A DNA stretch of 26,365 nucleotides from Pedosphaera sp. Its GTDB lineage: Bacteria; Verrucomicrobiota; Verrucomicrobiia; Limisphaerales; SIBH01. A program made the translations under genes and the position numbers. The DNA is taken from assembly GCA_031414955.1 (NCBI GenBank), contig JANOQV010000140.1, positions 1-26,365 on the forward strand, given 5' to 3'. Shown here in pieces: positions 657 through 26,365 of the stretch. Positions within the stretch are counted from its first letter, which is position 1. Every line of letters begins with the position of its first letter. The notes below the pieces were generated by a model, which worked only from the letters and a program-made list of their open reading frames with translations, searched no databases and had not been told where the DNA came from.

Positions 657-2228
657 TTAGCGCATGAGTTCTCCCGCACCACCCTTGCTTAGAATTCTAG
701 ACACCGGTCGCCAACGAGAAGCAGAAACCTTCGCTGGTTCGACTGGAGCAGTAACAATCTTCACCGGTTCTGGCAGCGCCGCCGGCTTTTCCGCAGCCCC
801 TCGCACCAGAAAATCTGGTCGGATGTTGAGTTCATACTCGTGCTTGGTCGTCTTGCCCGGCATAGGCACCGGATACACGCCGTTCGCATCTGCTACGATG
901 GGCGGCGGCGAGTCCATGGTCCACTTGTCGATGCCGGGGGCGTACTCCATGTCGTCGTTGAGCATGTCGTCGTAAGTGATTTCCATGCCGGTGTGCGCGG
1001 CCTTGCGGCCCATGGAGGTGACGACGCTGGCCTGGACGCCGAAGGGAACCTCGTTGTACGGCTTGTCGTTGCGGATGGCGGTGATGAGATCGTTCCACTC
1101 GTTTTGATAAGGGTCGTTTTCCTTTCCGAAGTCGCCCGACTGCCAGAGCATGTTGGTGCGGTTCGGCATCTGGCCCTTGTGAATGCTGGAAGGGCCGGCG
1201 TAATCGCCCGACTTGGCCGCGATGGCCATGCCCTTGGTGCCGTGGACGTTGCTGTAATACATGGGATGCGCGCCCGAGTTGCAGCGGCCTTCCAGGTAGA
1301 ACTTGGCCCCATCGGCAAAAGTGTATTCCACCGCGTAAGAATCAAAATTCTGATCTACCCACATTTCGCCGTCGGGGTTGGTGCGGTAGTGGCGACCGCC
1401 GAGCGCCTGGGCCTTGACCGGCCAGGCGTCCTTCATCCAGCACAGATGATCGATGTGGTGAATGTAGAAGTCGCTGTAGCAACCGCCGCTCGCCCAGAGG
1501 AAGCTGTGGAAGCGCGAAATCTGCCAGAGCAGTTCACTGGGCTTGCCGGGCCAGCGTGTCGAGAAGGCCGAGGCCACGGGACCGTGGCAGCGATAACCGC
1601 GCATCAGCATCACGTCGCCGATTTCACCGTTCTGCACGCGCTTGTGCAGTTCCTGAAGATGGCGCGCATGGCGGGACATCAGACCGACGCCGACCTTGAG
1701 GCCCTTGGCACTGGCCTTGTCAGAAAGTTCCAACATGCGGCGCGAAGTCGGGCCGTCGGCGGTGACAGGCTTTTCCATGAAGACGTTCAGCTTTTTCTCG
1801 ATGGCGTACTGGAAGTGAACCCAGCGGAAGGCCAGCGGAGTGGTGAAGATAGCCACATCGCCGGGGCGCAGGCAGTCCATCGCGTTCTTGTAGCCATCAA
1901 AGCCGATGAACTGTTTGTCCTGGGGCACCTGCACCTGGTCGTTGAATTTTTTTTGCAGTGTTTCATGGCTGCCCTTGAGCTTGCCCTCAAAAACATCGGC
2001 CATGGCGACCAGTTTCACCGGGCCGTCCTTCACGGCGAGTGCGTTGCCGGCCGCGCCCGTGCCACGGCCACCGCAGCCGACCAGGGCGATCTGGACGGTC
2101 TGGCTGTCTTGGGCGTGAACATGGGGCAAGGTCACGCCCGCCAGCGCGGAAGCAGCGGCGAAGGTGCCGGTGGTTTTCAAGAAGTCTCGGCGCGAAGCAT
2201 TGGCCGCGAGGTTTGAAGTTTCATTCAT
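657..2228 (-). CDS. Tat-exported Gfo/Idh/MocA family NAD(P)-dependent oxidoreductase (~523 aa) with Pro/Ala-rich C-terminal extension
   Basis: Twin-arginine signal SRRDFLK, Rossmann motif IALVGCGGRG, family motif VFMEKP, HHID. Start moved to ATG 2228 (MNETSN), just before the Tat motif. Confidence 0.92.
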   Translation of the reverse strand: MNETSNLAANASRRDFLKTTGTFAAASALAGVTLPHVHAQDSQTVQIALVGCGGRGTGAAGNALAVKDGPVKLVAMADVFEGKLKGSHETLQKKFNDQVQVPQDKQFIGFDGYKNAMDCLRPGDVAIFTTPLAFRWVHFQYAIEKKLNVFMEKPVTADGPTSRRMLELSDKASAKGLKVGVGLMSRHARHLQELHKRVQNGEIGDVMLMRGYRCHGPVASAFSTRWPGKPSELLWQISRFHSFLWASGGCYSDFYIHHIDHLCWMKDAWPVKAQALGGRHYRTNPDGEMWVDQNFDSYAVEYTFADGAKFYLEGRCNSGAHPMYYSNVHGTKGMAIAAKSGDYAGPSSIHKGQMPNRTNMLWQSGDFGKENDPYQNEWNDLITAIRNDKPYNEVPFGVQASVVTSMGRKAAHTGMEITYDDMLNDDMEYAPGIDKWTMDSPPPIVADANGVYPVPMPGKTTKHEYELNIRPDFLVRGAAEKPAALPEPVKIVTAPVEPAKVSASRWRPVSRILSKGGAGELMR

Positions 2229-2234
2229 AAGGTT

Positions 2235-2264
2235 AGTTTCGTGACGCCGGGGCCGTGATGTCAA
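2235..2264 (-). promoter_or_regulatory. Candidate sigma70 promoter for the oxidoreductase (probably leaderless)
   Basis: Minus strand TTGACA (2264-2259), 18 nt, GAAACT (2240-2235), 6 nt, ATG. Confidence 0.45.
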
Positions 2265-2432
2265 TTCAAGGAAACTCCTGGAGGGCAAATGGAAGTGACT
2301 TCCACCGGCCGCGCTGGAGAGGTGAAGTCCAAGTCAGAGTCGAGGCCGCCGCCTCCAGTCCGAAATCAGGCGCCCCGCCTGGCCGCACTTGTTGACCGGC
2401 CCTTCCCTTCGCACTCATTCTTGGATGGCAAG

Positions 2433-8544: not shown

Positions 8545-8856
8545 ATGAGCGTCGCCGAGTTGCCCATCCCGCTGGACCGCGAGAAAATCGCGGAGTTCTG
8601 CCGTGCGCGCGGCATCCGCAAGCTGAGCCTCTTCGGTTCCGTGCTCCGGGATGACTTCGATCCCGCTCGCAGTGACGTGGATGTGCTGGTGGAATTTCTC
8701 CCCGGCGTTCGGCCCGGCCTCAAGTTCTTCGGCTACGGCGAGGCGCTGGCGGAGATCATCGGACACAAAGTGGATTTCAACACCGCCGAGTGGTTGAGCA
8801 AATACTTCCGTGATGATGTGGTCCGGGAGTCTGTCGGAATTTATGAGCAGGCATGA
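8545..8856 (+). CDS. Minimal nucleotidyltransferase (MntA-type antitoxin), 103 aa
   Basis: LFGSVLRDDFDPARSDVDVLV fits the GS..DxD nucleotidyltransferase motif; KVD near the C-terminus; overlaps the HEPN gene. Confidence 0.9.
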   Translation: MSVAELPIPLDREKIAEFCRARGIRKLSLFGSVLRDDFDPARSDVDVLVEFLPGVRPGLKFFGYGEALAEIIGHKVDFNTAEWLSKYFRDDVVRESVGIYEQA

Positions 8857-9199
8857 TCCGAAAGTGACGCTGCGCCAGCTTGCGGAGTACGCGCGCCACT
8901 CCCAGGAGATTTGCAGTCAAAACACCTTGCCGGAAATCCGGGCCGACTGGCAGAAGCGCGCGGCCTTTGAGCGGGTGATGGAAGTTCTCGGCGAAGCGGT
9001 GAAGCGGCTGCCCTTTGAGTTGTGCCAGCAATATCCCGCCGTGGAATGGCGTCTGGTGGCCGGGATGCGCGACCGCGTGAGTCACGGCTACGACGGCATT
9101 GATTACCAGATGCTGTGGGACACGGTGGAGCAAGACTTGCCAACGCTGCTCACCACGGTCGAGAAGATGCTCGCTGACCTCGACAAGAGTTCTCATTGA
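8843..9199 (+). CDS. HepT-like HEPN RNase toxin (DUF86), 118 aa
   Basis: EVLGEAVKRL and WRLVAGMRDRVSHGY (R-x4-H-x-Y); 14-nt overlap with the MNT gene. Confidence 0.9.
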   Translation: MSRHDPKVTLRQLAEYARHSQEICSQNTLPEIRADWQKRAAFERVMEVLGEAVKRLPFELCQQYPAVEWRLVAGMRDRVSHGYDGIDYQMLWDTVEQDLPTLLTTVEKMLADLDKSSH

Positions 9200-9220
9200 C
9201 TCGCAGACTCGCAGACTCGC
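9198..9220. repeat. Tandem 8-mer (gactcgca) x ~2.9
   Basis: gactcgca gactcgca gactcgc, starting inside the HEPN stop codon. Confidence 0.8.
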
Positions 9221-9234
9221 CGGTCGGCGCTCCG

Positions 9235-9764
9235 CTACACCCGCAGCTTCGCCAGCAAGTCCTTGCTCTCCACGTTCTCGCCGACCTGGACGTTGATCTC
9301 GCTGACCACGCCGTCTGCCGCTGCGTAGATCGTGGTCTGCATCTTCATCGCTTCCATGGTCATCAGCTTGTCGCCTTTCGCCACCTTGGTGCCGACGCTA
9401 ACGTTGACGCTGGTGATGATGCCGGGAATGGGCGCGCCGGCCTGGAGCGGATCGGCAGGGTCGGCCTTGGCGCGGGCTTTCTTGTCGGCCTTGGCGGACT
9501 TGTCGGCGATGTGCGCGACGCGGGTGATGCCGTTGAGTTCGTACGTCACCGGGCGGCGGCCGTCCTTGTCCGGGTCGCCCACGCTGAAGAAGCGGATGAA
9601 GAGCGTCTTGCCTTCCTCGATATCGACGCTGATTTCCTCGGCGGGCTTGAGCCCGTAGAAGAACGCGGCCGTGGGCAGCACGCTCACGTTGCCGTAGTCG
9701 CGCGTGAACTTGGCGAACTCGGCGAAGACTTCGGGATACATGAAGTGGCTGTAGAGATCGTCGT
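9235..9764 (-). pseudogene. Displaced duplicate of the pyc 3' end (includes the biotin-carrier domain), direct repeat of 12255-12784
   Basis: Ungapped alignment at offset 3020; 27 mismatches in 530 nt by hand count; 4 amino-acid changes; intact EAMKM; TAG stop. Confidence 0.95.
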
Positions 9765-9832
9765 AAGCGGAGTCGCGGACAGCCTTGTAAGCAGTTTTTT
9801 CTTCAAGCACGACCGGCGGTAGAAATTGCCGT

Positions 9833-9861
9833 TTGCGAAGCCCGGTCCGGCTGGCTATTCT
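9833..9861 (+). promoter_or_regulatory. Candidate sigma70 promoter of the antitoxin-ParE operon (leaderless)
   Basis: TTGCGA (9833-9838), 17 nt, TATTCT (9856-9861), 6 nt, GTG start. Confidence 0.55.
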
Positions 9862-9867
9862 TTCGCC

Positions 9868-10092
9868 GTGAGCACACTGATGGAAATTCAAGACGCCGTA
9901 ACGAGGCTTCCCGCTGACGAGAAGACCGCCCTCTCGCTCTGGCTGAATTCCCAGGCCGCGCCCGCCCTGAGCGCGCGCGAGGAGCAACAGCTTCTCCGCT
10001 CGCTCGACGAAGCCATCCGGGACGTGGATGCGGGCCGGGGCGTGTCGCTGGCCGACGCGCACAAGCTCGTGGTTTCATGGGCTGCAAAGTAA
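9868..10092 (+). CDS. Putative type II antitoxin (addiction-module-like), 74 aa
   Basis: MSTLMEIQDAVTRLP...LDEAIRDVDAGRGVSLADA; small protein overlapping a ParE/RelE gene by 16 nt. Confidence 0.8.
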   Translation: MSTLMEIQDAVTRLPADEKTALSLWLNSQAAPALSAREEQQLLRSLDEAIRDVDAGRGVSLADAHKLVVSWAAK

Positions 10093-10373
10093 TTTTCTCG
10101 CCCCAGGCCATTGCGGACCTCGCGGCTGCCGTCCGCCACATCGCTAAGGACGATCCTCAAACCGCCGAACGCATCGGTCATGCGCTGATTGACCGCGTGA
10201 CCATTCTGGAAAATTTCCCACTGCTCGGCGCTCCTTATCCCAAGCGGCCCGGCGTGCGGAAACTCGTCTCCCGTCCCTACATCATTTTCTACCGCGCCAG
10301 GCCGGAAGAGAACTGCGTGGATATTCTCCGCTACTGGCACGGGACGCAGAGCGAACCGGTGCTGAACGATTGA
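10077..10373 (+). CDS. RelE/ParE family toxin, 98 aa
   Basis: VIFSPQAIADL, LENFPLLG, RKLVSRPYIIFYR, ILRYWHG: typical ParE-like pattern. Confidence 0.9.
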   Translation: MGCKVIFSPQAIADLAAAVRHIAKDDPQTAERIGHALIDRVTILENFPLLGAPYPKRPGVRKLVSRPYIIFYRARPEENCVDILRYWHGTQSEPVLND

Positions 10374-10409
10374 GCCGCCGGTCACCGATGGGTGCCTCTT
10401 TCCGAATAC

Positions 10410-10481
10410 GATGCCGCTCCGACGGAGCTTGGGATTCCGTTGCGGTGGCCTTTCTACAAAGATGCCGCCCCTGACGGGGCT
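10410..10481. repeat. Direct pair of REP-like hairpins
   Basis: gatgccgctccgacggagct (10410-10429) and gatgccgcccctgacggggct (10461-10481); stems gctcc/ggagc and gcccc/ggggc differ by compensatory changes. Confidence 0.75.
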
Positions 10482-10524
10482 GCCTGACCGCGCCCCGTCG
10501 CCAAGTCCGTGGCGACGCGGTTCT

Positions 10525-10753
10525 ATCCCAACGGGATTGCATCATTCAGCCCAGCGTTGCGACGCCGGGTCGCTACGCTGGGAAAGAGGTTTGCAGATTC
10601 ACCAACCCTGTAGGGGTTGCATCCCCGGACTGCACCCGCCATGGCCCGCTCGCGCTTCAACCCCTGCAGGGTTGATGTCGAATTGGTTTCCGGCACCCAG
10701 GGTAGCTCGCGGACTCGCAACCGCTGGGCTGAGTGATGAAATCCCGTTGGGAT
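10525..10753. repeat. 229-bp palindromic REPIN/MITE-like element
   Basis: Perfect 14-bp terminal inverted repeat atcccaacgggatt / aatcccgttgggat; arms stay complementary for ~58 nt; inner inverted pair 10603-10619 / 10658-10674. Confidence 0.85.
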
Positions 10754-10939
10754 TCAGGGGCGGCGCGATTGGGAAACCCGACTGGCTCCGCCGCGCGCAC
10801 CGGGAGAAAAAGCCGCGCTCGACAGCCCGTTTTCCCTGCCTACACTGCCGCTATGACCGCGCCGTTCCCGGACTGTTTCACGGATGGGCTGAAACGCGAA
10901 TTGCGGGCGAATATCTGTTGGAGCTGACGACAGGAGATT

Positions 10940-11437
10940 ATGGTGCCGCACAAGTACGACGAGATTGTCAGACATTTGTCAGCCGCTTTCGCCGAGATGA
11001 GAAGGATCGGCCTTGCCGACGTTGTGGCGAAAGGGGGAGTTGGCGAAATTTTACTGGCCCGCAATCGCGGACATGAATTGATTGTTTCCGACAAGGGAGC
11101 CGACGGGAAGGATTCCAATGACAATCGTTACGAGTACAAGGTCAGCATAACGGATCAGTTCAACTTCCACTTTGGCACACGCGAAACCAAAGACCCGCCT
11201 GAAGAGAAGGTGAAGAAACATTTTAAGGGTCTCAAAGGTGCGCTTTGCGCAAAGCGTGAGGACGAGAAGATAAAGCGGATTGTGTTTATCCCCACTGAAT
11301 CAATCGTGCCCTATCTCATCGATCACTTTGCCAATACGACAGGAAAGCAATTGAACGGGAATTTCTCATTCGGCCGTCTGCTTGCGATGAGGGATGCCGT
11401 AGAGCTAAACCCTGAAGACCCAACAAGTGCTCTGTGA
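10940..11437 (+). CDS. PD-(D/E)XK nuclease, PvuII restriction endonuclease-like, 165 aa
   Basis: RBS AGGAG upstream; GGVGE...GADGKDSNDNRYEYK gives D55-x9-E65-x-K67; size and layout resemble R.PvuII as recalled from memory. Confidence 0.65.
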   Translation: MVPHKYDEIVRHLSAAFAEMRRIGLADVVAKGGVGEILLARNRGHELIVSDKGADGKDSNDNRYEYKVSITDQFNFHFGTRETKDPPEEKVKKHFKGLKGALCAKREDEKIKRIVFIPTESIVPYLIDHFANTTGKQLNGNFSFGRLLAMRDAVELNPEDPTSAL

Positions 11438-12251
11438 ACTGTCGCTACGTCGCGTGAACAACACCATCGTCCAGCCACCAACCAAGGAAATCCTCGCGCT
11501 TTGCGACGACTCCGACTTGCTTATCGAGCGATATCTGGCGTGCGTTGGCACGATTCGCAGAACGATTCGCCGTTTCGAAGCTGAGACGGAGGTTTACACC
11601 ATCATGAAGCTCCTGATTCGCCACTTGGAGTCGGTATGCCAGTTGGCGCGTCACGATCTCGTTCAACTACCCTCCGCAGTCGTCCTCTCTCGCGCGGCTT
11701 TCGAGGCCAGCGTTCGCGCACGGTGGATGCTCCGTCCAGTTGATCCCTATGAACGAGAGGTGCGATGGGTTCTGCATCTTCGCTCTGCGACGGAGCACTA
11801 CGCCAAATTGGAGCGCAGCACATGCATACCGAAGGAGACCGCTGCGGCTTACGGCCTACGCCGCCAATCATACGAGGAATTCGGTGCCGACATTTCCAAA
11901 CTCCTTTGTGAGCGTGGATACTCCTTACCAAAGCAAGCCCCGAACATTTGGGAGATGGTCAAGGACATCGGCGAGCCAAACCTTTACCATTTCTACATTC
12001 TTCTTTCCGCCTACACGCACACGAATTTCGAGGCAGGCAACCTCTATCGTAAAAATCTCGGCAACGCGAAGGAACTGGGCGAGTTCATCACACCCAAAGA
12101 TTGGCAGCTTCCTTTGGAGGTCGCTTGGAGGTCCTTTTTCGTCATCGCCCACGACTTCTTGTACTGGGTCGAGGCAGACATGGCGACATTCTCCTCGAAG
12201 ACCCTGCGCCCCGGCTTTGAATCGCACTTATCCCAACTCAATGCGGCCTGA
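11427..12251 (+). CDS. DUF5677-like (HEPN-related) helical protein; start may be GTG 11454
   Basis: SAVVLSRAAFE and LYHFYILLSAYTH match the A..L.R...E and Y..LS...H pattern of DUF5677-type proteins. Confidence 0.6.
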   Translation: MLCELSLRRVNNTIVQPPTKEILALCDDSDLLIERYLACVGTIRRTIRRFEAETEVYTIMKLLIRHLESVCQLARHDLVQLPSAVVLSRAAFEASVRARWMLRPVDPYEREVRWVLHLRSATEHYAKLERSTCIPKETAAAYGLRRQSYEEFGADISKLLCERGYSLPKQAPNIWEMVKDIGEPNLYHFYILLSAYTHTNFEAGNLYRKNLGNAKELGEFITPKDWQLPLEVAWRSFFVIAHDFLYWVEADMATFSSKTLRPGFESHLSQLNAA

Positions 12252-12254
12252 CCT

Positions 12255-15200
12255 TTACACCCTCAGCTTCGCCAGCAGATCCTTGCTCTCCACGTTCTCG
12301 CCGACTTGCACGTTGATCTCGCTGACCACGCCGTCCGCCGCCGCGTAGATGGTGGTCTGCATCTTCATCGCTTCCATGGTCATCAGCTTGTCGCCTTTCG
12401 CCACCTTGGTGCCGACGCTGACGTTGACGCTGGTGATGATGCCGGGAATGGGCGCGCCAGACTGGAGCGGGTCGGCGGGGTCGGCCTTGGCGCGGGATTT
12501 CTTGTCGGCCTTGGCGGATTTGTCGGCGATGTGCGCGACGCGGGTGATGCCGTTGAGTTCGTATGTCACCGGGCGGCGACCCTCCTTGTCCGGGTCGCCC
12601 ACGCTGACGAAGCGGATGAAGAGCGTCTTGCCTTCCTCGATATCGACGCTGATTTCCTCGGCGGGCTTGAGTCCGTAGAAGAACGCGGCGGTGGGCAGCA
12701 CGCTCACGTTGCCGTAATCGCGCGTGAACTTCGCGAACTCGGCAAAGACCTCGGGATACATGAAGTGACTGTAGAGATCGTCGTCGCCGACTTCGCGTTT
12801 CAACTTGCCGATGAGCGAGCGCGTCTCGGCCTTCAAGTCGGCGGGCGGGAAGTTGGAACCGGGCCGGCCCTTGAGCGGCTTCTCGCGGCCAATGACGACC
12901 TTCTGCAACTGCTTCGGCCAGCCGCCCATCGGCAGGCCGAGTCCGCCGCGCAGCATATCGACGACGCTGGCGGGAAAAGGCGTGACGCCGGGTTCGAGGT
13001 TCACCACGTCGGCGGGCTTGATGCCGCGCGTGATGAGAAACATCGTCATGTCACCGACAACCTTGCTGCTCGGCGTCACCTTCACGATGTCGCCGAAGAG
13101 CTGGTTCACCTCGGCGTAAGTGCGCGCGATCTCCGGCCAGCGATGCGCGAGACCCATGCTGGCGGCCTGTTCCTTGAGGTTCGTGTATTGGCCGCCGGGC
13201 ATTTCGTGGAGATACACTTCCGCGCTGCCGGTCTTGGGCGCGGTGTCAAAGGGCGCGTAAATCAAGCGCACGCGCTCCCAGTAGTCGGAGAATTCGTTGA
13301 GCGCTTCGAGGTCGAGTCCGGTGTCGCGCGGCGTACGTTCGAGCGCAGCGACTATGGAGTTCATATTTGGCTGGCTCGTCGAACCGCTCATGCTGGCGAT
13401 GGCGAGATCAACGATGTCCACGCCGGCATCCGCGGCCTTCATCACGCTTGAAGCGTTCACGCCGCTCGTGTCGTGGGTGTGGAAGTGAATGGGCAGGCCA
13501 ACCTCTTCCTTGAGCGCCTTGACCAACGCGTGCGCCGCATAGGGACGGCAGAGTCCCGCCATGTCCTTGATCGCCAAGAGGTGCGCGCCCATGCGCTCCA
13601 GTTCCTTGGCGAGCTTCACGTAATACTTGAGCGAATACTTGGTGCGCTTCGGGTCCAGGATGTCGCCGGTGTAGCAGATGGCGCCCTCGCACAACGCGTG
13701 CGTCTCCTGCACCGCGTCCATCGCGACCGTGAGGTTGGGCAGGTAATTCAGCGAGTCGAAGATGCGGAAGATGTCCATGCCCGACTCGGCGGCGTGCTTG
13801 ACGAAACCGGCCACGACGTTGTCGGGATAATTCGAGTAACCCACGGCGTTGCTGCCGCGAAAGAGCATCTGGAAACAAATGTTCGGCACCTTGGCGCGCA
13901 ACTCGCGCAACCGCGCCCACGGATCTTCGCGGAGGAAACGCATCGACGTGTCGAAGGTCGCGCCGCCCCACATCTCCAGCGAGAACAACTGCGGCGTGCG
14001 TTGCGCCACCGCACCGGCGGCGGCGAGCATGTCGTAGCTGCGTACGCGCGTGGCCATGAGCGACTGATGCGCGTCGCGAAAGGTCGTGTCGGTGATGAGC
14101 AGGCGCTTCTGCTTCGCCGTCCACTCGGCGAATTTCTTCGGGCCGAGTTCGAGCAGCAGGTCGCGCGTGCCTTTCGCCGGCTTGGCCTTGTGGTCGTATG
14201 CCGGTGGCGCGATCTGCGGCGCATGACTCGCGAGCTTGTGGCCCTTCGCGTGCGGATTGCCGTTCACGATCACGTCGCCGAGGAAACTGAGCAGCTTGGT
14301 CGCGCGGTCGCGGCGATGCTTGAAGGCGAACAATTCCGGGGTGTTGTCGATCAGCGTGGTCGTGGCCTGCCCGCTGCGGAAGGTCTCGTTGTGAATCAGG
14401 TTTTCGAGGAACGGGATGTTCGTCTTCACGCCACGAATGCGGAATTCCTTGAGCGACCGATCCATGCGCTGCAACGCCATCTCGAAGGTCTGCCCGCTCG
14501 TCGTGAGCTTCACCAGCAACGAGTCGTAGAAAGGCGTGATGACCGCGCCCGCATAGCCCATGCCGCCGTCGAGTCGCACCCCGAAACCGCCCGCGCTGCG
14601 GTAGGTGAGAATCTTGCCGTAGTCCGGCGTGAACTTGTTCTCGGGATCCTCGGTGGTGATGCGCGACTGCACGGCGTAACCCTGGCGCGGGATTTTATCT
14701 TGCGGCGGCAGGCCAACCTCGGCTGAGAACATCGACTGCCCTTGCGCAATCATTATCTGCGCGCGCACGAGATCGATGCCGGTGATGACTTCCGTGACCG
14801 TGTGCTCGACTTGAATACGAGGGTTCATCTCGATGAAGAACCATTCGTTGCAGTCGAGGTCGTAAAGGAATTCCACCGTGCCCGCGTTGTCGTAACCAAT
14901 CTCTTTCGCGATGCGCGCGGCCGCGAGACACAACTCCTGCCGAACGTGATCGTCCAAGCCAACGCTGGGCGCGATCTCGACAACCTTCTGATGCCGCCGC
15001 TGGACCGAGCAATCGCGTTCGTGCAAATGCAGCACATTGCCGTGCTTGTCGCCGAGCACCTGCACCTCGATGTGCTTCGCGCGCGGAATATATTTCTCCA
15101 GGAACACGGCGGGATTGCCGAAGGCGCGTTCCGCTTCGCCCTGCGCCTCGTCGAGCAGATGGTCGAGGTCACCGGACTTGTGAACGACGCGCATCCCGCG

Positions 15201-18258: not shown

Positions 18259-21200
18259 TCATGGCCGGAGCAGAATCTTGTAGAGGCGCTGGGTGTTGGT
18301 TCCCACCGGATCAGTGAGGGTGGCCGAGGCGTTAGTCGCGGCCATGTTCGTGGCCAGCACGGACCAATCGAGTTCGACCAGAGCGTTCTTGAATAGCACA
18401 TCATAGTTTCTTCCCGCCACGGCGTTCCAGCTCAGCGTCACCACCGCGTCGGTCAGGGCGATGGAGGCAGTCATATCGGGCGAGACCACCACCACCTCGA
18501 AGCTCTTCGCATCCTCCAGCGCGGGCGTGCCGCCGTCGGTGGCACGCAGGACGAAGGTGTTCGTGCCGAGGTTGTTCGCGGTCCAGGAGAACAATCCGCT
18601 GGCCGCGTGGACGCTCGCGCCGGGGGGCGGAAACACGCCGAAGTCGAAGGTGATGGTCTGCGCGGGCAGGTCGGCGTCCGTCGCTGTGGCGGTAAACGAA
18701 ACGACTTCGCCGAGTAGCGTGGTGCGGTTCGTCATCGCGGCCAGGACTGGCGTCGTGTTGCTCTCGTTCACGATGATGAGTATCGCCGCCGAGTTGCTCA
18801 ACGCCGGCGTGCCATTGTCCTGCACGCGCACGATGACGGTGTAGGCTCCCGGTCCTTGCGCCTCGGAGGGCTGCCAGGTGAAGACGCCACTGGTCGGATT
18901 GATCCCAGCCCCCGCCGGACGCGACAACGGATCGAGGCTGAAGGCCAGCGGTTGGGCCGGCACATCAGAGTCCGCCGCCAGCGCCGTGAAGGTGAACACG
19001 GAACCCTCACCTACCAATCCGTCGCCGGGAATGCTCAGGCTCGGCGCGTTGTTCGTCTCCAGCACCGTCACGAGGAAGGTCTGCGTGGCACTCAGCGGAG
19101 GCAGTCCGTTGTCCTGCACCCTCACGCTGAACTCGTGATTGGTGCCGCCTTGCGACTCGTCGGGAATCCAGCCGAACACGCCGTCCGTGGCGCCGATGAT
19201 CGCGCCCGCCGGAGCGCCGGGCAGGAATGACCAGGTCAACGTCTGGCCGGGCAGGTTGGCGTCGCTGGCCAGGACAGTGAAGGCGAGGATGCCGCCCTCG
19301 GCCACCGTCTTGTCGCCGATCGGATTGAGCACCGGCGCAACATTGGGCAGCGGATAATAGTTCGCCGCGCGCGGCGTGGTGTTGGTCAGGAAGAAGGTCG
19401 GCGGGCCGGCATCCGGGAAGCGTCCCTGCGTGACGTCGGCTTGCTGCAAGCCAAAGGTCACCGCATCGATCTGAAGCCCGTCGGGCGTGAAGAGGCCGAT
19501 GGCTTCGCCCGTCCTCGCCAGACCGAAATCCACATGCAGGTCCGCGCGGTTGGTGGCGTTCTGCCCGGCCTCGCTGTCCGCCCAGACCAGCAGGTAGCCG
19601 TGCGGCGGGATGTAATAGCCGGGCGGGATCTGATATTTGAATTTGTTGGTCAGCGTGTCGGTGAGGTAATAGCCGGCCAGGCTCACGGTGTTGCTGCCGG
19701 GATTGTGCAGCTCGAACCAGTCCTCGTAATTGTCGTCCGCCGGATCAGCCAGCGCGCCCACGTTGTCCGCCATCCATTCGTTGATGAACACCGCGACCGG
19801 CGGCAACGTGCCGTTGTTGGTCGCGCCCGCCGTCACGTAATACATCTCGAAGCGGGTGAAGGGCTGTCCGTCCGGATACGAGCCGAAGGAGTGATCGAGC
19901 CCCGCCACGTAGTTCACATGGTCGATGACCTGCAGCTCGCCCGCGTTGGGCCGCGACAGCGCGACCGAGCCGGAGCCGGACGCGAGGCGGAAGCCGGCGT
20001 GCAGTTCACCGGACGTGGTCTCGTTCGTTTCGCCGTCGCAGAAGACGATCTTGAACTGGCCGGCATTGACGACGTGACCGGACGGGAAAGCCCACTGCGC
20101 GAGCACGGTGTAATTCGAGGCGAGGAACAGTCCGTCCAGCGACACGGCGTTCGTGCCGGGATTGTGAATCTCGATCCACGGCTCGCGTTCGCTGGCCGTG
20201 TCGAGCGGCCCGGTCAGATTCCCGGCCTGCACTTCATTGATCCACAAGTTGGGGAAGACCGGCAGCGTGCGGGTCATGGCGTTGGAAGCGCCGGGCGTGC
20301 CCAGGCTGCCGAGGGCCACGACCTGGCGGTTGATGTTGGTCGTGACGTTCAAGGGGCCGCTGTTCTGGAGCTTGACCGTGAGATTGGTCGCGGAGTTGGT
20401 GGAGTAAAACCAGAAGCTCAAGGTATGCACCGCGTTGGTCAGCGGCGCGGGGGAAAGCAACTGCGAGATGAGGCGCGGACTGGCGTTGCCAAACGTGGCG
20501 CAGACCATCTTCAGCGCACCCGTGCCGCTGTGAACCACGTCGCCAGTGATCACAGTGTTGGTGTAATTGGTCCCCACGTTCCAACTGTTGGTCACGGGCG
20601 ACACCTCCAGCAGCGGCCCCGTTTCAAAATCGCCGTTGCGCACGTAGTTGGGGCCCACGCCCGCCACGGTGCCCGCCACGACGGCGATGTCATCGACCAC
20701 GCCGACGGCACCGTTGATTTCGCCATTGCCGAAGTTGAGGGTCAGCCGCATCTGGTTGCCGCCCACGCCCGGTCCGGCAATGCCGGTGGCGACGACGAAG
20801 CGCCAGCCTTCGTTGACCGCCTGCACCGCGCCCCAGTTGCCCACGCGCCGCGTGTCCTGCGCCGCGTCGATCAATTGCAACGACACGCCGCCGCCGCCGC
20901 CCGGCCAGGGCAACGCGCCTTCATAACGAACCTTGTCCACCACGAGATCCAACTCCGGAGTCGCGCCTGGTTTGACCAACGTGAGCGTCTCGCCCCCCGT
21001 TTGTAGATTGCCGGGATAAATGTCGTAGGGCGTCACGTTCGTGCCATAAGCCGCCGCAAACGCCACCCGATCCTTTGCCAGCACCAGGTAAGTGCGCGGG
21101 CTGAAGATCGTGCCGTCGGGGAAGGTGTAGCCGAGGCCATCCAGCCGCCAGTTCGAGAGATCAAAGGTCGTGTTGGTGGACGTGTTGAACAGCTCCACGA

Positions 21201-24200
21201 ACTCCGCGTCCGGCCAGGGCGGCTGCGACATGATCTCGTTGATGACCAGAAAATCCTGCGGCGGCGCGGGCGGGGCCGTGACTGTGACCGTGATGGTGTC
21301 CATGCTGTTGCTGAAGGCGTTGCCGTAATGATCACGCGCCACCAGGTTGAGCACGTTGGTGCCGGAGGGCAGGGCAAGGACGAGGCTCCAGTTGGTCGTG
21401 GTGCTCCAGGTCAGCGCGTAGGTCACGCCGTTAATCTCGATGCTGTCCACTTGAAGCGGGCCGCGACCATTGAGCGTGACCACGTTGTTGGCGTTGGTGA
21501 AGTCATTGCCGGAGTTGCTCTGAATCTCGAACGTCGCCGTGTTGTTCGTGGCCAGGGCGTTGAGCAGCACCACGCGCTTGGCCGCGATGTGCGTCTTGAT
21601 CGCGGACGGACTGGCCACGCCCGCGCCCGCCGCGACCATGCCGGCATAACGTGCGTCGATGATCGTGTCCGAGCGCGTGGGCAGCATCATGCCGTGGGCC
21701 GCTTCGAGCAGCGTCTGCCAATAGATACGGTTGAAGGGCGTGTGATCATTGCGCGGCCCGTGATCCGCGCCGCCGATGCCGGTCAGGTTGGAATCGCTGC
21801 CCGTCCCGCCAAAGGCGAAGTCCACGTCCCAGAGCAGCAGATTCCAGCGACCGTGCGACGGACGGTACATGAAGGCGTTCTGACCGCCGCCATACGAGAA
21901 GCTGTCCGTGTTGTTAATCAGATGCTGCGTCACATCAGTCTTGTACCACTCGCGCACGTCGAAGGAGTTCGTCAGCGTGGTCGTGTAGAGAGCCGTGTTG
22001 AGCGCCGCCGCCGTCATGGCGGCATTCACCAGTCCGTACACATTGGTGTAATTGTTTTGCTCCAAGGGCGAGGCCGAGCGCCAGGGCAGGGTGGCGCGGT
22101 AGCGGGCCATCTTGAACGCCCCGCCCGTGGTCGTGTAGCGGTTGAAGTTCGCCCCCACTGTCCCGTAGCCCGCCTCGCCGTTGCCGTAAGCCGTGTCGCC
22201 AAACTCGAACCCAATCTGAATCTTGTGCAGCTCGCCGTCGGCATCATCCGGAAACCACTGGTCCACGAAGTCGCCGTTGGGCTGCTGCGCGTCGTGCATG
22301 ATGGTGGTGTTGCGCCGTTGCCCGTTCACGTAGAGGAAGACCGGACGGTGGTAGAGGAACGGATTGCCGAACTGCCCGCCGAACCAATAGGCGTGAATCT
22401 CCTTCTGGCCCGTGGTGTCGCCGCCGCCGTTGCCGGGGCGGAAGAGATTGAGGTCCGTCTCGCCGAAGAGCCGCTCGTCCGGCGCGAAGCCCAGATCGTA
22501 ATCGCAGTTGTTGCCCACCGGCGAATTGTAGGCCGGCGAATGATACGGGCTGCCGTGGAACCACGCCCCCATGTTGTAGAACACCCGGTTCGTGCCATAG
22601 ATGAAGGTCGCGTCCTTGGGTTTGTTGCTCATCTTTTCCTCCGCCACCCAACGGTCGATGGTGCGCTGCGTAAGCCAGAAGCGATACGTGGGCAACGTGC
22701 CGGGAATGTTCACGTCGCCCCACTCGAGCACGCACTCGCGCGCCGGCGCGTCGTTCGGGAAAGTCGGCCCCGTGCCCGGACTGAGCCGGTCCGTGGCCTG
22801 GAGGTGGAAGGCCGCGAAGACATTGCTGGCCTGGCCGGGAATCACCGCGCTGAACAACCCCGCGCCGTTGTTGGTCATGGCCAGCGCGATGAAGTTCGTG
22901 GATGGCTCCACGCGATACTTCAAGAGCAACGTCGCCAGCCCGTCCGGGTCCTCCACCCGCGCCGTCACCAGCACGGGCGTGTTGGTCGCGGGCAGGGCCG
23001 GCCAGTGCGCCACCGCCGTGATGGCCGGACCCGCATTCGTGGTCGCGGTCGAGTTCACCGCGCCGGGCGTGCCGAGATTCTTGGCCGTGACCATGTAGCC
23101 GGGCGCTTCCATGTAATTGCCACGCACCCGGAGCAGGATGTTCGGGTTGCCTTTCAGCCAGCGCACCTTGGCCCGGATCGTCACCGTCGTGCCGCTGGCG
23201 ATGGCGAAAGGCAGTTCGCAGCGCACCCGGTTCGCGCCGCTGTCCCCGCGCCCGGTCGCGCGCAAATGCAGCGAGCTGGTGCTCAGGTAGCCGGCCTCCG
23301 CGTCCCGCCCGGATTCGTTGTGGTTGCCCTGGAAGGTCCACCCGGCTGAATCCGTCTCGAAGCCGGTGTTGCCGATCAGGTTCGTGACGAAGTTCACCTG
23401 GATGAGTTCGACGTAGTCCACCAGCGCCTCGCCCGCGCCGAGCAGCGTGAGGTGGAGTTGGTGCGCCGTCTGCCACCCGTTGTCCATCACGCCCGTCGCT
23501 TCCACCGTGATCCACTGGCTCTTCGCGGTCTCGATGCTGTCCGCCCAGTTCGGCGCCAGCCGGCGGTTGCTCCGCCAGTCCTTGAGTTCCAGACTGCTCC
23601 CCCCGCCCGCCGCCCATTTGCCCCAGCGCCCGCCGTCCGCGTACGTCACCTCGTCCATCACGATGTGAATGGTGTTCGTCGAGACCACGCCCTGGCCGTT
23701 GGTGCTCACGATGGTGTCGGGCTTGGTCAGCGCCATGCGTTCGCCGCTGTCCTTCAACGTGCCCTCCCAATCGCCCAGGCAATTGTTCGTCGTGAGCGTG
23801 AGGTAATTGGACCGCAGCAGCGTCGCCTTGGCCGCGAGGACCAGATAGCCGTGGGCGGGAATGACCGTGCCGCTGGGGATGGTGAACTTCACTCCATCCT
23901 TGATCCGCCACTTGCCCACGTTCACCGCGTTGCTGCCGGGGTTGAACAGCTCGATGTATTCCTCGTCGCTGTTCTTGGTCACGGGGTCATACATGATTTC
24001 ATTGATCACGATGACCGGCGTGCGGTGACGCGCGTTGGCGGCTCCGGGCGTCTTGCTCTGGAGGCGATGAAGCTCCGTCCCGCCATCCGGGAAGCGCCCC
24101 GTGGCCACGCCGTTCTCTTGCGCCTCGAAGCGCACGCAATCCAGCACGCGGGTGTTCTGAGGGTTCTTCAGGTAAACCGTCTCGCCCTCCGCGCTCAGGC

Positions 24201-26109
24201 CGAAGCCGAGATCCGTCTCGGTGTAAACCACGAAGCCATTCGCCGGGATGATCGTGCCCGGCGGGATGACAAACTTGTTCGTCCCCGCGTCATCTGTCAG
24301 CACGCAGCCCGCGAGGTCCACGCTCTCCGTCGAGTAATTGAACAGCTCGAGATAATCCAAGTCGGGCCAATCGGTGTGCGCCAGGAACTCATTGATCATC
24401 ACCGTGCGATACGGGTTGGCGCTGGCCACTTCGTTCGTGCCGGGCGTGCCGCCGATCACGTCACTGGCCAGCCACGCGCGCGCATCACCTTCGCCGTAAC
24501 TCGGACGCGCCAGCACCAGCGAATGCCCCGCGCCATCCGCCGCCGCGGGGAAGGGGACAGCACCCGCGTAATCCATCTCGAACATCACCGCATCCGCCTT
24601 GTTCCGCAGGCGCAGCGTGCCCTCGCTGTTGTTGAGCGCCCCGGCCCACGGCCCCAGCACGCCGCTCGTCCCGTACACCGCCAGCACATCCGCCGGCACC
24701 GCCGCGATCACCGCGTAGCTGCGCGCGCCGAGCACGAAGTTGCTGGGGAAGGTGTAAGCAACCTCGCCGCTGAGGCGCCAGCCGCCCAGTTCCTCGAACC
24801 ACGGACTGCTGTTGAAGACCTCGATGAACTCCACGTTGCGCCCATCGAACCGATTCGTCGGATGATACATCACCTCCGAGATCGTGAGCGCCCCGCGCCG
24901 CGTCGAGGGTCCGGGCGGTTCGCTCTGCGGCTTCAAGTAACCCACGTCGAGCGGACGGCTCGCGAGGAGGAACGCCGCCTCCGTGTTCGGCGCAATCGTG
25001 TTCGGCGTCTGCGCTCGGTCCCGCACGTTGCTCACGCGCAAGGTGTAGTCCACCCCCGCCGCCATCGGCGTCGTGGTCAGCACCACCGTGCGACTGTCCA
25101 CGCCCATCGCCGCCGTCAGCACGCTCACGCCATTGCTGATGTTGTAATTCCCCGCCCCCGTGGCCGTCGCCACCTCCACCGGCTCCGCGAACACTACCGT
25201 GAGCAAATCCAAATCGCCCAGACCGCCCACGCTCGCCAGGGCCGGCGGCGTCGTGTCCGCCAGCACGGTGAGGGTGAAGTTAGTCGTGAAGGCGGCCCCG
25301 GCCAGATTGCTCGCCCCGAACCGGAACGTCGCTCCGTGATCCGCCAGCGTCAGGACCGGGGTGAGATAATTCGTCGCCGTCGCGCCGGGCAGGTTCGTCC
25401 CGTTGCGTTGCCACTGCTGCGCGGCGCTGAACCCGTGAATGAACGCCACCGAAAAACTCGGCTGGCTGCCCTCCACCACCGTGAGGTTCGCCGGCTGCTG
25501 CGTGAAGACCGGCGGCACCACGCCCACCGGCACGCACCGCACCGCCGGGATGGGCGCGTTCGTATCCGCCGGCACTTCCCACCCGCCGCCCGGCAACTGC
25601 CAGCGCACGCTCAGGTTGTCCCCGCCCGTGCCCTCCTTCTGCAACGCCTCCAGGTAATACTGTTGCCCGCCGACCAGCGTGATGGGTGCCGACTGCTGAT
25701 TCGTCTCCTTGGTCCACTGCTTCCAGGTCGTGCTGCTGTTGACCGTGGCGATGAGGCGCTTGCTCGCCGCGTCGCTGTTCGTGCCCAGATAAAGCACGCT
25801 GTTGTCATCACTCGCGATCCAGAACGTGTATTCGCCCGAGGCCGGCGGCGTGATCAGCGCCCGCAGCCGCGTGCCATAGTTGTCGAGGATGTTGACCGCG
25901 CAATCCAGGTTGGTCGTCAACACCTCCTCGATTCCGGGCGAGTTCGGGAAGCTCGCGGCGTTGGTCAACAACGCCACCGTGCTGCCCGTGATGTTCAGAT
26001 AAACCTCGCGAGTGATGCCATTGGAAGACTGGGCGCGCAGCGTCAGTGGAAGTAAAAACATGGCCGTGAGAACGGCCATGACGTGGGCGGCGTTTGGGCG
26101 CAATCGCAT
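18259..26109 (-). CDS. Giant secreted protein (~2616 aa): PA14, Ig-like, six lamin-tail domains, CotH kinase, three Ig/cadherin-like repeats
   Basis: Signal peptide from MRLRPN; PA14 (YTFWIASDD, YYLEALQKEGTGGD); LTD starts ISEVMY, INEFLA, INEIMY, INEIMS, INEVQA, INEWMA; CotH-like NNTDS..QNAFMY..WDVDFAFG; three N.(A/T)P.L...G.F.W repeats. Confidence 0.9.
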   Translation of the reverse strand: MRLRPNAAHVMAVLTAMFLLPLTLRAQSSNGITREVYLNITGSTVALLTNAASFPNSPGIEEVLTTNLDCAVNILDNYGTRLRALITPPASGEYTFWIASDDNSVLYLGTNSDAASKRLIATVNSSTTWKQWTKETNQQSAPITLVGGQQYYLEALQKEGTGGDNLSVRWQLPGGGWEVPADTNAPIPAVRCVPVGVVPPVFTQQPANLTVVEGSQPSFSVAFIHGFSAAQQWQRNGTNLPGATATNYLTPVLTLADHGATFRFGASNLAGAAFTTNFTLTVLADTTPPALASVGGLGDLDLLTVVFAEPVEVATATGAGNYNISNGVSVLTAAMGVDSRTVVLTTTPMAAGVDYTLRVSNVRDRAQTPNTIAPNTEAAFLLASRPLDVGYLKPQSEPPGPSTRRGALTISEVMYHPTNRFDGRNVEFIEVFNSSPWFEELGGWRLSGEVAYTFPSNFVLGARSYAVIAAVPADVLAVYGTSGVLGPWAGALNNSEGTLRLRNKADAVMFEMDYAGAVPFPAAADGAGHSLVLARPSYGEGDARAWLASDVIGGTPGTNEVASANPYRTVMINEFLAHTDWPDLDYLELFNYSTESVDLAGCVLTDDAGTNKFVIPPGTIIPANGFVVYTETDLGFGLSAEGETVYLKNPQNTRVLDCVRFEAQENGVATGRFPDGGTELHRLQSKTPGAANARHRTPVIVINEIMYDPVTKNSDEEYIELFNPGSNAVNVGKWRIKDGVKFTIPSGTVIPAHGYLVLAAKATLLRSNYLTLTTNNCLGDWEGTLKDSGERMALTKPDTIVSTNGQGVVSTNTIHIVMDEVTYADGGRWGKWAAGGGSSLELKDWRSNRRLAPNWADSIETAKSQWITVEATGVMDNGWQTAHQLHLTLLGAGEALVDYVELIQVNFVTNLIGNTGFETDSAGWTFQGNHNESGRDAEAGYLSTSSLHLRATGRGDSGANRVRCELPFAIASGTTVTIRAKVRWLKGNPNILLRVRGNYMEAPGYMVTAKNLGTPGAVNSTATTNAGPAITAVAHWPALPATNTPVLVTARVEDPDGLATLLLKYRVEPSTNFIALAMTNNGAGLFSAVIPGQASNVFAAFHLQATDRLSPGTGPTFPNDAPARECVLEWGDVNIPGTLPTYRFWLTQRTIDRWVAEEKMSNKPKDATFIYGTNRVFYNMGAWFHGSPYHSPAYNSPVGNNCDYDLGFAPDERLFGETDLNLFRPGNGGGDTTGQKEIHAYWFGGQFGNPFLYHRPVFLYVNGQRRNTTIMHDAQQPNGDFVDQWFPDDADGELHKIQIGFEFGDTAYGNGEAGYGTVGANFNRYTTTGGAFKMARYRATLPWRSASPLEQNNYTNVYGLVNAAMTAAALNTALYTTTLTNSFDVREWYKTDVTQHLINNTDSFSYGGGQNAFMYRPSHGRWNLLLWDVDFAFGGTGSDSNLTGIGGADHGPRNDHTPFNRIYWQTLLEAAHGMMLPTRSDTIIDARYAGMVAAGAGVASPSAIKTHIAAKRVVLLNALATNNTATFEIQSNSGNDFTNANNVVTLNGRGPLQVDSIEINGVTYALTWSTTTNWSLVLALPSGTNVLNLVARDHYGNAFSNSMDTITVTVTAPPAPPQDFLVINEIMSQPPWPDAEFVELFNTSTNTTFDLSNWRLDGLGYTFPDGTIFSPRTYLVLAKDRVAFAAAYGTNVTPYDIYPGNLQTGGETLTLVKPGATPELDLVVDKVRYEGALPWPGGGGGVSLQLIDAAQDTRRVGNWGAVQAVNEGWRFVVATGIAGPGVGGNQMRLTLNFGNGEINGAVGVVDDIAVVAGTVAGVGPNYVRNGDFETGPLLEVSPVTNSWNVGTNYTNTVITGDVVHSGTGALKMVCATFGNASPRLISQLLSPAPLTNAVHTLSFWFYSTNSATNLTVKLQNSGPLNVTTNINRQVVALGSLGTPGASNAMTRTLPVFPNLWINEVQAGNLTGPLDTASEREPWIEIHNPGTNAVSLDGLFLASNYTVLAQWAFPSGHVVNAGQFKIVFCDGETNETTSGELHAGFRLASGSGSVALSRPNAGELQVIDHVNYVAGLDHSFGSYPDGQPFTRFEMYYVTAGATNNGTLPPVAVFINEWMADNVGALADPADDNYEDWFELHNPGSNTVSLAGYYLTDTLTNKFKYQIPPGYYIPPHGYLLVWADSEAGQNATNRADLHVDFGLARTGEAIGLFTPDGLQIDAVTFGLQQADVTQGRFPDAGPPTFFLTNTTPRAANYYPLPNVAPVLNPIGDKTVAEGGILAFTVLASDANLPGQTLTWSFLPGAPAGAIIGATDGVFGWIPDESQGGTNHEFSVRVQDNGLPPLSATQTFLVTVLETNNAPSLSIPGDGLVGEGSVFTFTALAADSDVPAQPLAFSLDPLSRPAGAGINPTSGVFTWQPSEAQGPGAYTVIVRVQDNGTPALSNSAAILIIVNESNTTPVLAAMTNRTTLLGEVVSFTATATDADLPAQTITFDFGVFPPPGASVHAASGLFSWTANNLGTNTFVLRATDGGTPALEDAKSFEVVVVSPDMTASIALTDAVVTLSWNAVAGRNYDVLFKNALVELDWSVLATNMAATNASATLTDPVGTNTQRLYKILLRP

Positions 26110-26220
26110 AGTGATTCCGCCCACCGTAACATTCCCGTCACCTGCACCCAAGCACTCTCCTGCCTCCTGCCATGTTACCTGTTGAAGCGCCCTCCCCGAC
26201 CTTCCGGGCAGCAGCAGCCG

Positions 26221-26365
26221 AAACCCCAAACCCCAAGCTCCAAACCCCAAGCACCAGGGAAACCCCAAGTTCCCAAGCTCCCATCGGCCCCGGCACCTCG
26301 AGGCCACCGGCCCGATGAGGAGCTGGACCACCGGCTTGGAGCTTGGGGTTTGGAGCTTCTCTGGT
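26221..26365. repeat. Heptamer-based inverted repeat element (AAACCCC/AAGCTCC units), truncated at the right edge
   Basis: aaacccc aaacccc aagctcc aaacccc aagcacc... at 26221-26282; reverse-complement arm ttggagcttggggtttggagcttctctggt from 26336. Confidence 0.8.

Follow-up and report, generated by a model that had tools for sequence, protein, structure and literature searches.

An orphan 3' end of the pyruvate carboxylase gene behind a toxin/nuclease cassette in Pedosphaera sp. points to gene-tail displacement as a probable route of gene gain

The stretch of DNA analysed here (the window) is the whole of contig C140 (JANOQV010000140.1; 26,365 nucleotides) of Pedosphaera sp., a metagenome-assembled genome (MAG) referred to below as G000 (6.55 Mb in 313 contigs, 62% GC, 95.9% complete, 5.84% contamination). 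In this contig the 3' end of pyc, the pyruvate carboxylase gene, is present twice, once in the intact gene and once as an orphan tail lying behind a cassette that encodes a ParE-family toxin and a protein with a restriction-type nuclease fold. The arrangement is best explained, at somewhat better than even odds, by gene-tail displacement, in which a trimmed DNA circle from a relative was integrated by a single crossover into the pyc tail. The pyc gene is one of about 19 genes of G000 that have orphan tails (about 40-530 bp) behind cargo, and the same route appears to turn the 3' ends of many conserved genes in the genus into stacking sites for toxin-antitoxin (TA), restriction and other modules.

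Two diverged copies of the pyc 3' end

The gene was identified as pyc by its Pfam domains (biotin carboxylase, PYC_OADA and biotin-lipoyl), and its nearest named relatives are mostly found in Verrucomicrobiota MAGs. Read in the direction of pyc, the full gene is followed by opposite-strand cargo of 2490 bp, the orphan tail (last 176 codons), a HepT-MNT pair and a DEAD-box helicase gene (Table 1). An earlier note on this DNA had described the repeat, its mismatches, amino-acid changes and stop codons, and the length of the cargo, all of which were recovered on realignment: positions 9235-9764 and 12255-12784 form an ungapped 530-bp alignment with 27 mismatches (about 95% identity, BLAST E 0.0), the encoded ends differ at four amino acids (F/V, D/E, A/S, A/S), the stop is TAG in the orphan and TAA in pyc, and the copies are spaced 3020 bp apart.

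Divergence between the copies is largely synonymous (pS 0.184, pN 0.010, pN/pS 0.054; binomial p 4e-11), supporting the view that both descend from functional alleles that diverged under purifying selection in two lineages. To this extent the earlier description of the copies as two functional alleles, rather than a decaying duplicate, is sustained. It does not extend to the present state of the orphan, which is not a second working allele now, because it begins mid-domain at about codon 981 and has no pyc start of its own. The orphan tail, apparently promoterless, is probably silent now. A promoter and terminator scan gave chance-level results only.

Support for the junctions in metagenome assemblies

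Part of the window is contained in 20 runs, of which the best two, X1 and X2, hold 0.92 and 0.81 of its words. X1 is possibly the source sample, and both come from one study. The evidence from runs consists of assembled contigs of depth 6-15, and there was no RNA run among the runs listed as containing window sequence. In independently assembled contigs of X1 and X2 all four junctions are bridged with zero mismatches and without alternative letters: cargo/orphan by X1 9722-10343 (listed for X1 only), cargo/gene end by X1 11748-12291 and X2 11753-12338, gene end/rest of pyc by X1 12642-12933, and orphan/HepT by X2 8840-9361.

The ratio of cargo to flank depth, a weak measure taken over clean pieces, was 0.82 in X1 and 0.92 in X2, revealing neither amplification nor a minority strain. 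The tandem amplification through the repeats that the earlier note had envisaged was thus not seen, the ratio being below 1 in both runs; the loop-out of a 3020-bp circle, which it had also proposed, would be geometrically right.

These data make it very improbable that the layout is an assembly artefact created by merging cargo-bearing and cargo-free strains. The contamination of the MAG, the uneven allele depths within the repeat and the presence in it of four identical stretches of 38-68 bp, which block phasing by short words, would all fit such a merger. Nevertheless, the four junctions were all found in independently assembled contigs with flank-like depths, the cargo/orphan junction lies mid-gene, where merging two full pyc alleles would not place it, and the decayed, frameshifted or internally deleted orphans found at other loci are not assembler products.

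Recombination between the two alleles

In X1, both alleles are linked over 12459-12519 (depth 18.7 for B, the orphan copy, and 9.5 for A, the copy in use). In X2, a single contig of depth 12.2, about twice that of its neighbours, carries A alleles through 12497 and B alleles from 12519, 22 bp apart, a combination absent from both window copies. It must occur in the X2 reads, because nine 31-letter words cover both sites. The two alleles therefore recombine in a natural population, and the X2 recombinant could stem from either intrachromosomal conversion or uptake from kin. A alleles missing over 12564-12608 in X1 and X2 were not counted as conversion: expected and observed depths are ambiguous there, and cleaning of an assembly graph could drop one allele arm.

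Allele comparison with outgroups, proposed earlier as a means to locate the crossover, gave a candidate interval (12421-12458) at borderline significance. On the 5' side of 12459 the ancestral state is more often that of B, and on the 3' side of 12420 more often that of A, with one switch between them (permutation p 0.04 with 9 close outgroups, 0.06 with 18). A single polarity switch is what a single crossover predicts, and this signal is weakly in line with it.

Orphan gene ends across the genome

In a scan of 4225 likely coding frames of G000, same-contig copies of each frame's own ends were sought and kept where synonymous differences equalled or exceeded non-synonymous ones. Orphan tails were found downstream of their gene in 21 copies (19 genes), heads upstream in 6 copies (4 genes), tails upstream in 3 (3 genes) and a head downstream once (1 gene); downstream tails outnumber upstream heads by 19 genes to 4 (p 0.003). 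Tails probably outnumber heads since a tail left stranded would be silent, whereas the native promoter would drive expression of a stranded head.

For further counts a set of 17 genes (20 copies) was curated by hand, with lysS and ppdK treated separately and with C11, C142, C184, C215, C237, C267, the second case on C40, C67 and C80 dropped by eye beforehand as repeat-domain proteins, shadow frames or unclear cases. The names given to the event genes (lysS, thrS, ppdK, asd, ispH, lepA, glmS, gcvP and others) are presumptive, the sequences having been read by eye with no family scan. The 20 curated tails are 40-529 bp long (median 95) and 82-97% identical to their genes, with 175 synonymous against 44 non-synonymous codon differences. 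Homology ends at most 2 bp beyond the stop in 16 of the 20. The tail lengths are variable and the junctions sharp. Beyond the orphan boundary no significant homology was detected at pyc (p 0.195), and 1 of 23 copies reached p 0.049; a decayed continuation 5' of the pyc orphan boundary was accordingly rejected, its apparent likeness being no better than that of random controls.

The cassettes between gene and orphan carry diverse genes. A Pfam scan of 13 cassettes other than that of pyc identified PIN, ParE, RelE or PemK toxins in six, other TA-associated domains in two, DNA methylases in two and an AAA ATPase in one, the other two having no match. Surface and regulatory genes are among the contents of the remaining cassettes, which were read by eye only. 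The earlier note's idea that the TA pair could penalise loss of the islet is conjectural, and in several sister cassettes no toxin was recognised. Stacked tails occur in G000 at lysS, ispH, a DUF1501-like gene and an M16-like peptidase gene, and in G009, a congener, at pyc. Tyrosine recombinases (PF00589) have eight matches in the genome and none on the 17 event contigs, large serine recombinases (PF07508) have none in the genome, and the cargo at pyc has no integrase or transposase. ComEC and DprA matched above the cut-off, their presence being no proof of competence.

Junctions made by REP/RAYT activity were considered and rejected, the flanks being no more repetitive than non-coding controls (9/23 versus 154/400, p 1.0); the genome has 12 Y1_Tnp matches, and a small repeat abuts the pyc junction. 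GTAG stops were 4 of 17 versus 33 of 391 (p 0.06). As a separate observation, on contig C83 (1-11169, L221) lysS and thrS converge on a cassette array that holds three lysS tails and one thrS tail; the lysS tail in use there shares only about 80% identity with the orphans, themselves 89-92% identical to the lysS of congeners. In addition, 37 matches of at least 300 bp (88-98% identity) link different contigs of G000, many at contig ends, and some of these may represent additional tail cassettes at which the assembly was interrupted.

Empty sites, tail lengths and cargo in relatives

In the congener G008, pyc is directly followed by a close homologue of the same HepT gene, and X1 also contains another strain's pyc end joined to such a HepT. 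Because of this adjacency in G008 and in the X1 strain, the position of the orphan is taken as the old gene end, with the cargo having entered between. In most of ten other displayed loci the gene after pyc differs.

A partial pyc tail downstream on the same contig was found in 5 of 44 genomes with a match, and among congeners with at least 2 kb downstream of pyc in three of five. In a further 160 pyc loci, which overlap with the 44-genome matches and are not independent of them, tails were present in 4 of 126 with enough downstream DNA and heads in 0 of 87. The tails at pyc measure 113, 134, 158 and about 585 bp in congeners and 530 bp in G000, so that no site is fixed; the same cargo, with the same 113-bp boundary, occurs in G007 and G009. 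A recoded pyc tail was not seen, its divergence from the five closest outgroups (0.13-0.19) falling within the range of the rest of pyc (0.07-0.21).

Similar variation was found at other genes, and congeners differ in both tail length and cargo at pyc, lysS and lepA. Orphan lysS tails of 69-372 bp were found at 10 of 11 fetched loci, most of them picked for multiple matches among 41 genomes, and lepA tails of 41-61 bp in four congeners, two of them on separate contigs. One RelE-like cargo end is joined to lysS at two distances from the end of the gene, 82-84 bp and 339 bp, through short shared words; since the same cargo end lies at two lysS positions, the junctions must have been remade. The exact DNA pattern had no match in metagenome contigs.

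Homologues of the window's ParE pair were examined in the best 9 of 14 fetched loci, and in 4 of the 9 a diverged duplicate, 35-56 bp long, of the end of an adjacent gene brackets the pair: two at what is presumably a topoisomerase gene, one at another tail and one at a head. At L271 (1415-1463) and L273 (1421-1470), from genomes of different families, the ParE pair lies directly behind a gene that we take to encode a type II topoisomerase B subunit, together with an orphan fragment of that gene, so that the toxin may adjoin a relative of its target. At L267 (610-665), a frameshifted orphan head of a pheA-like gene lies upstream of the same ParE pair, a head-type event.

Proposed mechanism and alternatives

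Under gene-tail displacement, the cell probably received DNA from a close relative that comprised the relative's own pyc 3' end and the genes following it. This DNA was then probably trimmed and circularised, and a single homologous crossover within the pyc tail probably inserted it; the outcome would be an intact pyc and a spare tail stranded 3 kb downstream. Variable lengths, sharp joints, kept downstream genes and the absent integrase favour a circle with a single crossover. We infer the circle, its entry route and RecA dependence; natural transformation is a possible route, because ComEC and DprA are encoded. In E. coli, 56 of 60 clones obtained with a substrate of one-sided homology carried duplications (109-950 bp in the 14 sequenced), attributed to partial degradation, recircularisation and single crossover, and these were ten times commoner than products of homology-facilitated illegitimate recombination (HFIR) (PMC3240628).

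Linear HFIR is itself the strongest competitor, though an unlikely one. Here the donor would anchor in pyc by homologous recombination and the cargo end would join the recipient gene at a microhomology 530 bp before the stop, with no circle. Joints of this illegitimate kind are characterised by 3-10 bp of microhomology. The one-sided homology, the presence of ComEC and DprA and the short shared words at the two lysS junction positions agree with it, and it has been proposed for effector displacement at type VI secretion system (T6SS) and Rhs loci (PMC5361080). Yet HFIR generally pairs insertion with deletion (PMC3240628). At the present locus, by contrast, recipient DNA exists in two copies, and the junction of pyc with HepT known from G008 survives behind the cargo; nor would it be expected to produce a polarity switch along the repeat.

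Less likely still is a two-armed cassette, in which a donor gene-cargo-orphan unit passes on its cargo by double crossover, the orphan acting as a second arm refreshed with functional alleles and the cargo nuclease possibly driving the process, as in the case of WHO at yeast FBA1. The architecture is identical to that of WHO clusters (PMC7282813), the cargo has a restriction-fold nuclease without a methyltransferase, G007 and G009 have the same cargo and boundary, and the alleles recombine, as in X2. This scheme is weakened by boundaries that vary at one gene and for one cargo, by a pyc tail whose divergence from congeners does not exceed that of the remaining gene, and by the setting of the nuclease homologues: at none of 14 loci (3 bacterial, 11 viral) does the homologue sit between an adjacent gene and a duplicate of that gene's tail. 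In addition, a methylation-dependent activity of BisI type would explain the missing methyltransferase (PMC11347163), and the first insertion is left unexplained. Finally, a relic of an integrase-borne element that replaced the pyc 3' end, of the e14 type at icd/icdC, would share the gene-element-fragment layout (PMC13626634) but is highly improbable, given the lack of integrases on the 17 event contigs, five pyc tail lengths with no fixed attachment site, and 0 confirmed of 7 candidate pyc tails in viral contigs.

Several points weigh against the circle and single crossover that we favour. At pyc, the contrast across genomes between tails (5/44) and heads (0/42) reaches only p 0.056, ispH tails were found in G000 only of 41 genomes, and head duplications exist too (contig C184, and ahead of a pheA-like gene in G007). 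The evidence for a crossover point is of borderline significance and comes from outgroups that are themselves related, and gene conversion at a later time could obscure or imitate the switch. Ku was not found in this 95.9% complete genome. A search for the sequence that natively continues the cargo at the pyc junction found none, and any microhomology there is conjectural. As the whole-genome scan took in no distant genomes, about 19 loci per genome, or about 3 per Mb, may be an ordinary number. The E. coli precedent concerns conjugation of an engineered plasmid at about 4e-9, not transformation (PMC3240628). Moreover, among the pieces listed for X1 and X2 none covers both copies, and both the circle and the empty site were unseen in contigs of depth 6-15, data that could not reveal a circle. 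We infer that both copies lie on one molecule, a chromosome with a separate one-copy circle being a possible alternative.

A bolder extension of gene-tail displacement, which we regard as tentative and rather doubtful, is an integrase-free, integron-like system in which circles of tail plus cargo would excise, move between strains and re-integrate at matching tails. At dozens of loci such a system would accumulate stacked TA and restriction modules; it would continually exchange the C-termini of essential enzymes for kin alleles and would re-hitch modules to new tails.

Cargo and neighbouring genes

Table 1. Features of the window around the pyc repeat (positions of contig C140)
Feature	Position	Strand	Basis or remark
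MNT (nucleotidyltransferase) antitoxin	8545..8856	+	older cargo outside the repeat
HepT-like toxin	8843..9199	+	close homologue directly after pyc in G008 (empty state)
Repeat copy B, orphan pyc 3' end	9235..9764	-	alignment; open frame, stop TAG; adjoins HepT as pyc does in G008
Cargo	9765..12254		2490 bp; GC 0.576 versus 0.623 for the genome
Candidate antitoxin, 74 aa	9868..10092	+	no Pfam family; putative role from position beside the ParE gene
ParE-family toxin, 98 aa	10077..10373	+	PF05016, E 1.6e-15
Short palindromic repeat	10452..10483		also present on contigs C97 and C215
Long palindromic dispersed repeat	10512..10766		45-bp arms; fold z -8.5; relatives on >10 other contigs
Solitary PvuII/BisI(NhoI)-fold endonuclease (predicted), 165 aa	10940..11437	+	structure model and fold match; no methyltransferase in cargo
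DUF5677 protein, 265 aa	11454..12251	+	convergent on pyc; stop 3 bp from pyc stop
pyc, intact pyruvate carboxylase, 1156 aa	12255..15725	-	Pfam domains
Repeat copy A, in-use last 176 codons of pyc	12255..12784	-	alignment; stop TAA
Candidate single-crossover interval	12421..12458		allele polarity switch versus outgroups; weak, p 0.04-0.06
Recombination endpoint in X2	12498..12518		X2 contig; A at 12497 joined to B at 12519

The toxin/nuclease islet reported earlier was confirmed by Pfam for the ParE toxin and by fold for the nuclease. The candidate antitoxin gene is kept beside the ParE gene at homologous loci in other genomes. The long palindromic repeat is presumably REP/REPIN-like.

The model of the 165-aa protein (pLDDT 93.7) matched PvuII (E 9.8e-6) and NhoI (E 1.1e-5) in Foldseek, and VIA-align gave Z 12.9 for PvuII (root-mean-square deviation 3.6, 149 aligned) and Z 11.3 for NhoI (4.0, 140 aligned). 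PvuII thus scores slightly above NhoI, and Eco15I was also matched; this is a fold match only, at 13-16% identity, which suggests a restriction-type nuclease fold. Among 401 phylum genomes the nuclease profile matched in G000 only, and a single-protein search of 301 order genomes matched three others; a protein search gave 74 matches, itself included. NhoI and Eco15I, members of the BisI family, are methylation-dependent (PMC11347163), and a predicted activity of this type, 5mC-dependent cleavage at GCNGC, would account for the missing methyltransferase.

Solitary homologues of this PvuII/BisI-fold nuclease were also seen in 11 low-GC phage contigs (L234-L244), by eye with no methyltransferase; several lie near a gene that we take to be MazG-like, and in one (L235) the 3' end of the nuclease gene itself is repeated over 110 bp at 90% identity. 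A 56%-identical homologue (L217, 7088-7564) is inserted alone, with no flanking repeat, within what is presumably a lutA-lutB-like operon, and in L218 and L219 distant homologues are accompanied by a DNA methyltransferase within a bacterial microcompartment operon.

The DUF5677 protein was found in G000 only among 301 order genomes, and an 80%-identical paralogue lies on contig C208 without a flanking repeat. PADLOC gave no match for the nuclease and a weak partial PDC-S52 match for the DUF5677 protein.

Elsewhere in the window, a tandem 8-bp unit lies past the HepT stop (9198-9220), with one copy fewer in a strain of run X3. A 51-bp, 86% repeat (598-649 and 821-872) at the 3' end of a Gfo/Idh/MocA gene (657-2288, minus strand) is possibly a short orphan tail 223 bp downstream. 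Positions 18259-26331 encode a 2690-aa protein with PA14, six lamin-tail, CotH kinase and Ig domains, and the contig end (26210-26359) carries CCCCAA-rich short tandem and inverted repeats.

Comparison with known systems and significance

Unconventional circularizable structures consist of cargo between long direct repeats, with no recombinase gene. The present locus has this layout and differs in that its repeats are diverged alleles of an essential gene end, its cargo is not drug resistance and its circles are conjectural. The prophage e14 has a site-specific integrase. As at icd/icdC around e14, a housekeeping 3' end is duplicated around an insert whose loss recombines the copies, but, unlike this 15-kb prophage, the locus described here has neither an integrase nor a fixed site (PMC13626634).

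The locus shares with WHO at yeast FBA1 the order of gene, nuclease and orphan 3' fragment, stacking over time and diverged allelic tails, and differs from it in having no fixed fragment start, no accelerated divergence of the pyc tail, a nuclease family not tied to the layout, and other cargo in most cassettes (PMC7282813). In rhs and T6SS effector loci, where an intact gene is likewise followed by strings of variable-length orphan 3' fragments, the proposals for C-terminal displacement are a circle with a crossover and HFIR, the circle model having been proposed for rhs tip displacement (PMC2935791, PMC5361080). In those systems the tip is a new toxin domain, whereas here the enzyme stays the same (4 changes in 176 codons), the difference is confined to the cargo downstream, and about 19 unrelated genes are involved. 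The trimmed and recircularised route of E. coli likewise gave a variable-length duplication of the anchor gene around foreign DNA with no integrase; it was a laboratory case with identical homology, in contrast to the natural DNA, diverged allele and many housekeeping genes of the present one (PMC3240628).

The integration route is already known, and what is new is its genome-wide and genus-wide scale. No paper was found on such tails at many housekeeping genes, or in Verrucomicrobia, in a search with little coverage of subscription journals. To the known route this locus adds scale, polarity, recurrence across the genus, modules moving between gene ends and a natural recombinant, and possibly an unusual density of events.

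The orphan tails are a footprint, visible in sequence, of one-anchor gene gain, which as a rule has been measured only in the laboratory and at very low frequency. Here the footprint is seen at about 19 genes in a single genome, and the same genes bear it across the genus. For the interpretation of MAGs, duplicate fragments of about 95% identity, easily taken for contamination or strain mixing, can be genuine. If the process is general, marker genes such as lepA and lysS would end in recombinant codons, and the ends of housekeeping genes would be a main entry point for defence and TA genes without mobile-element enzymes.

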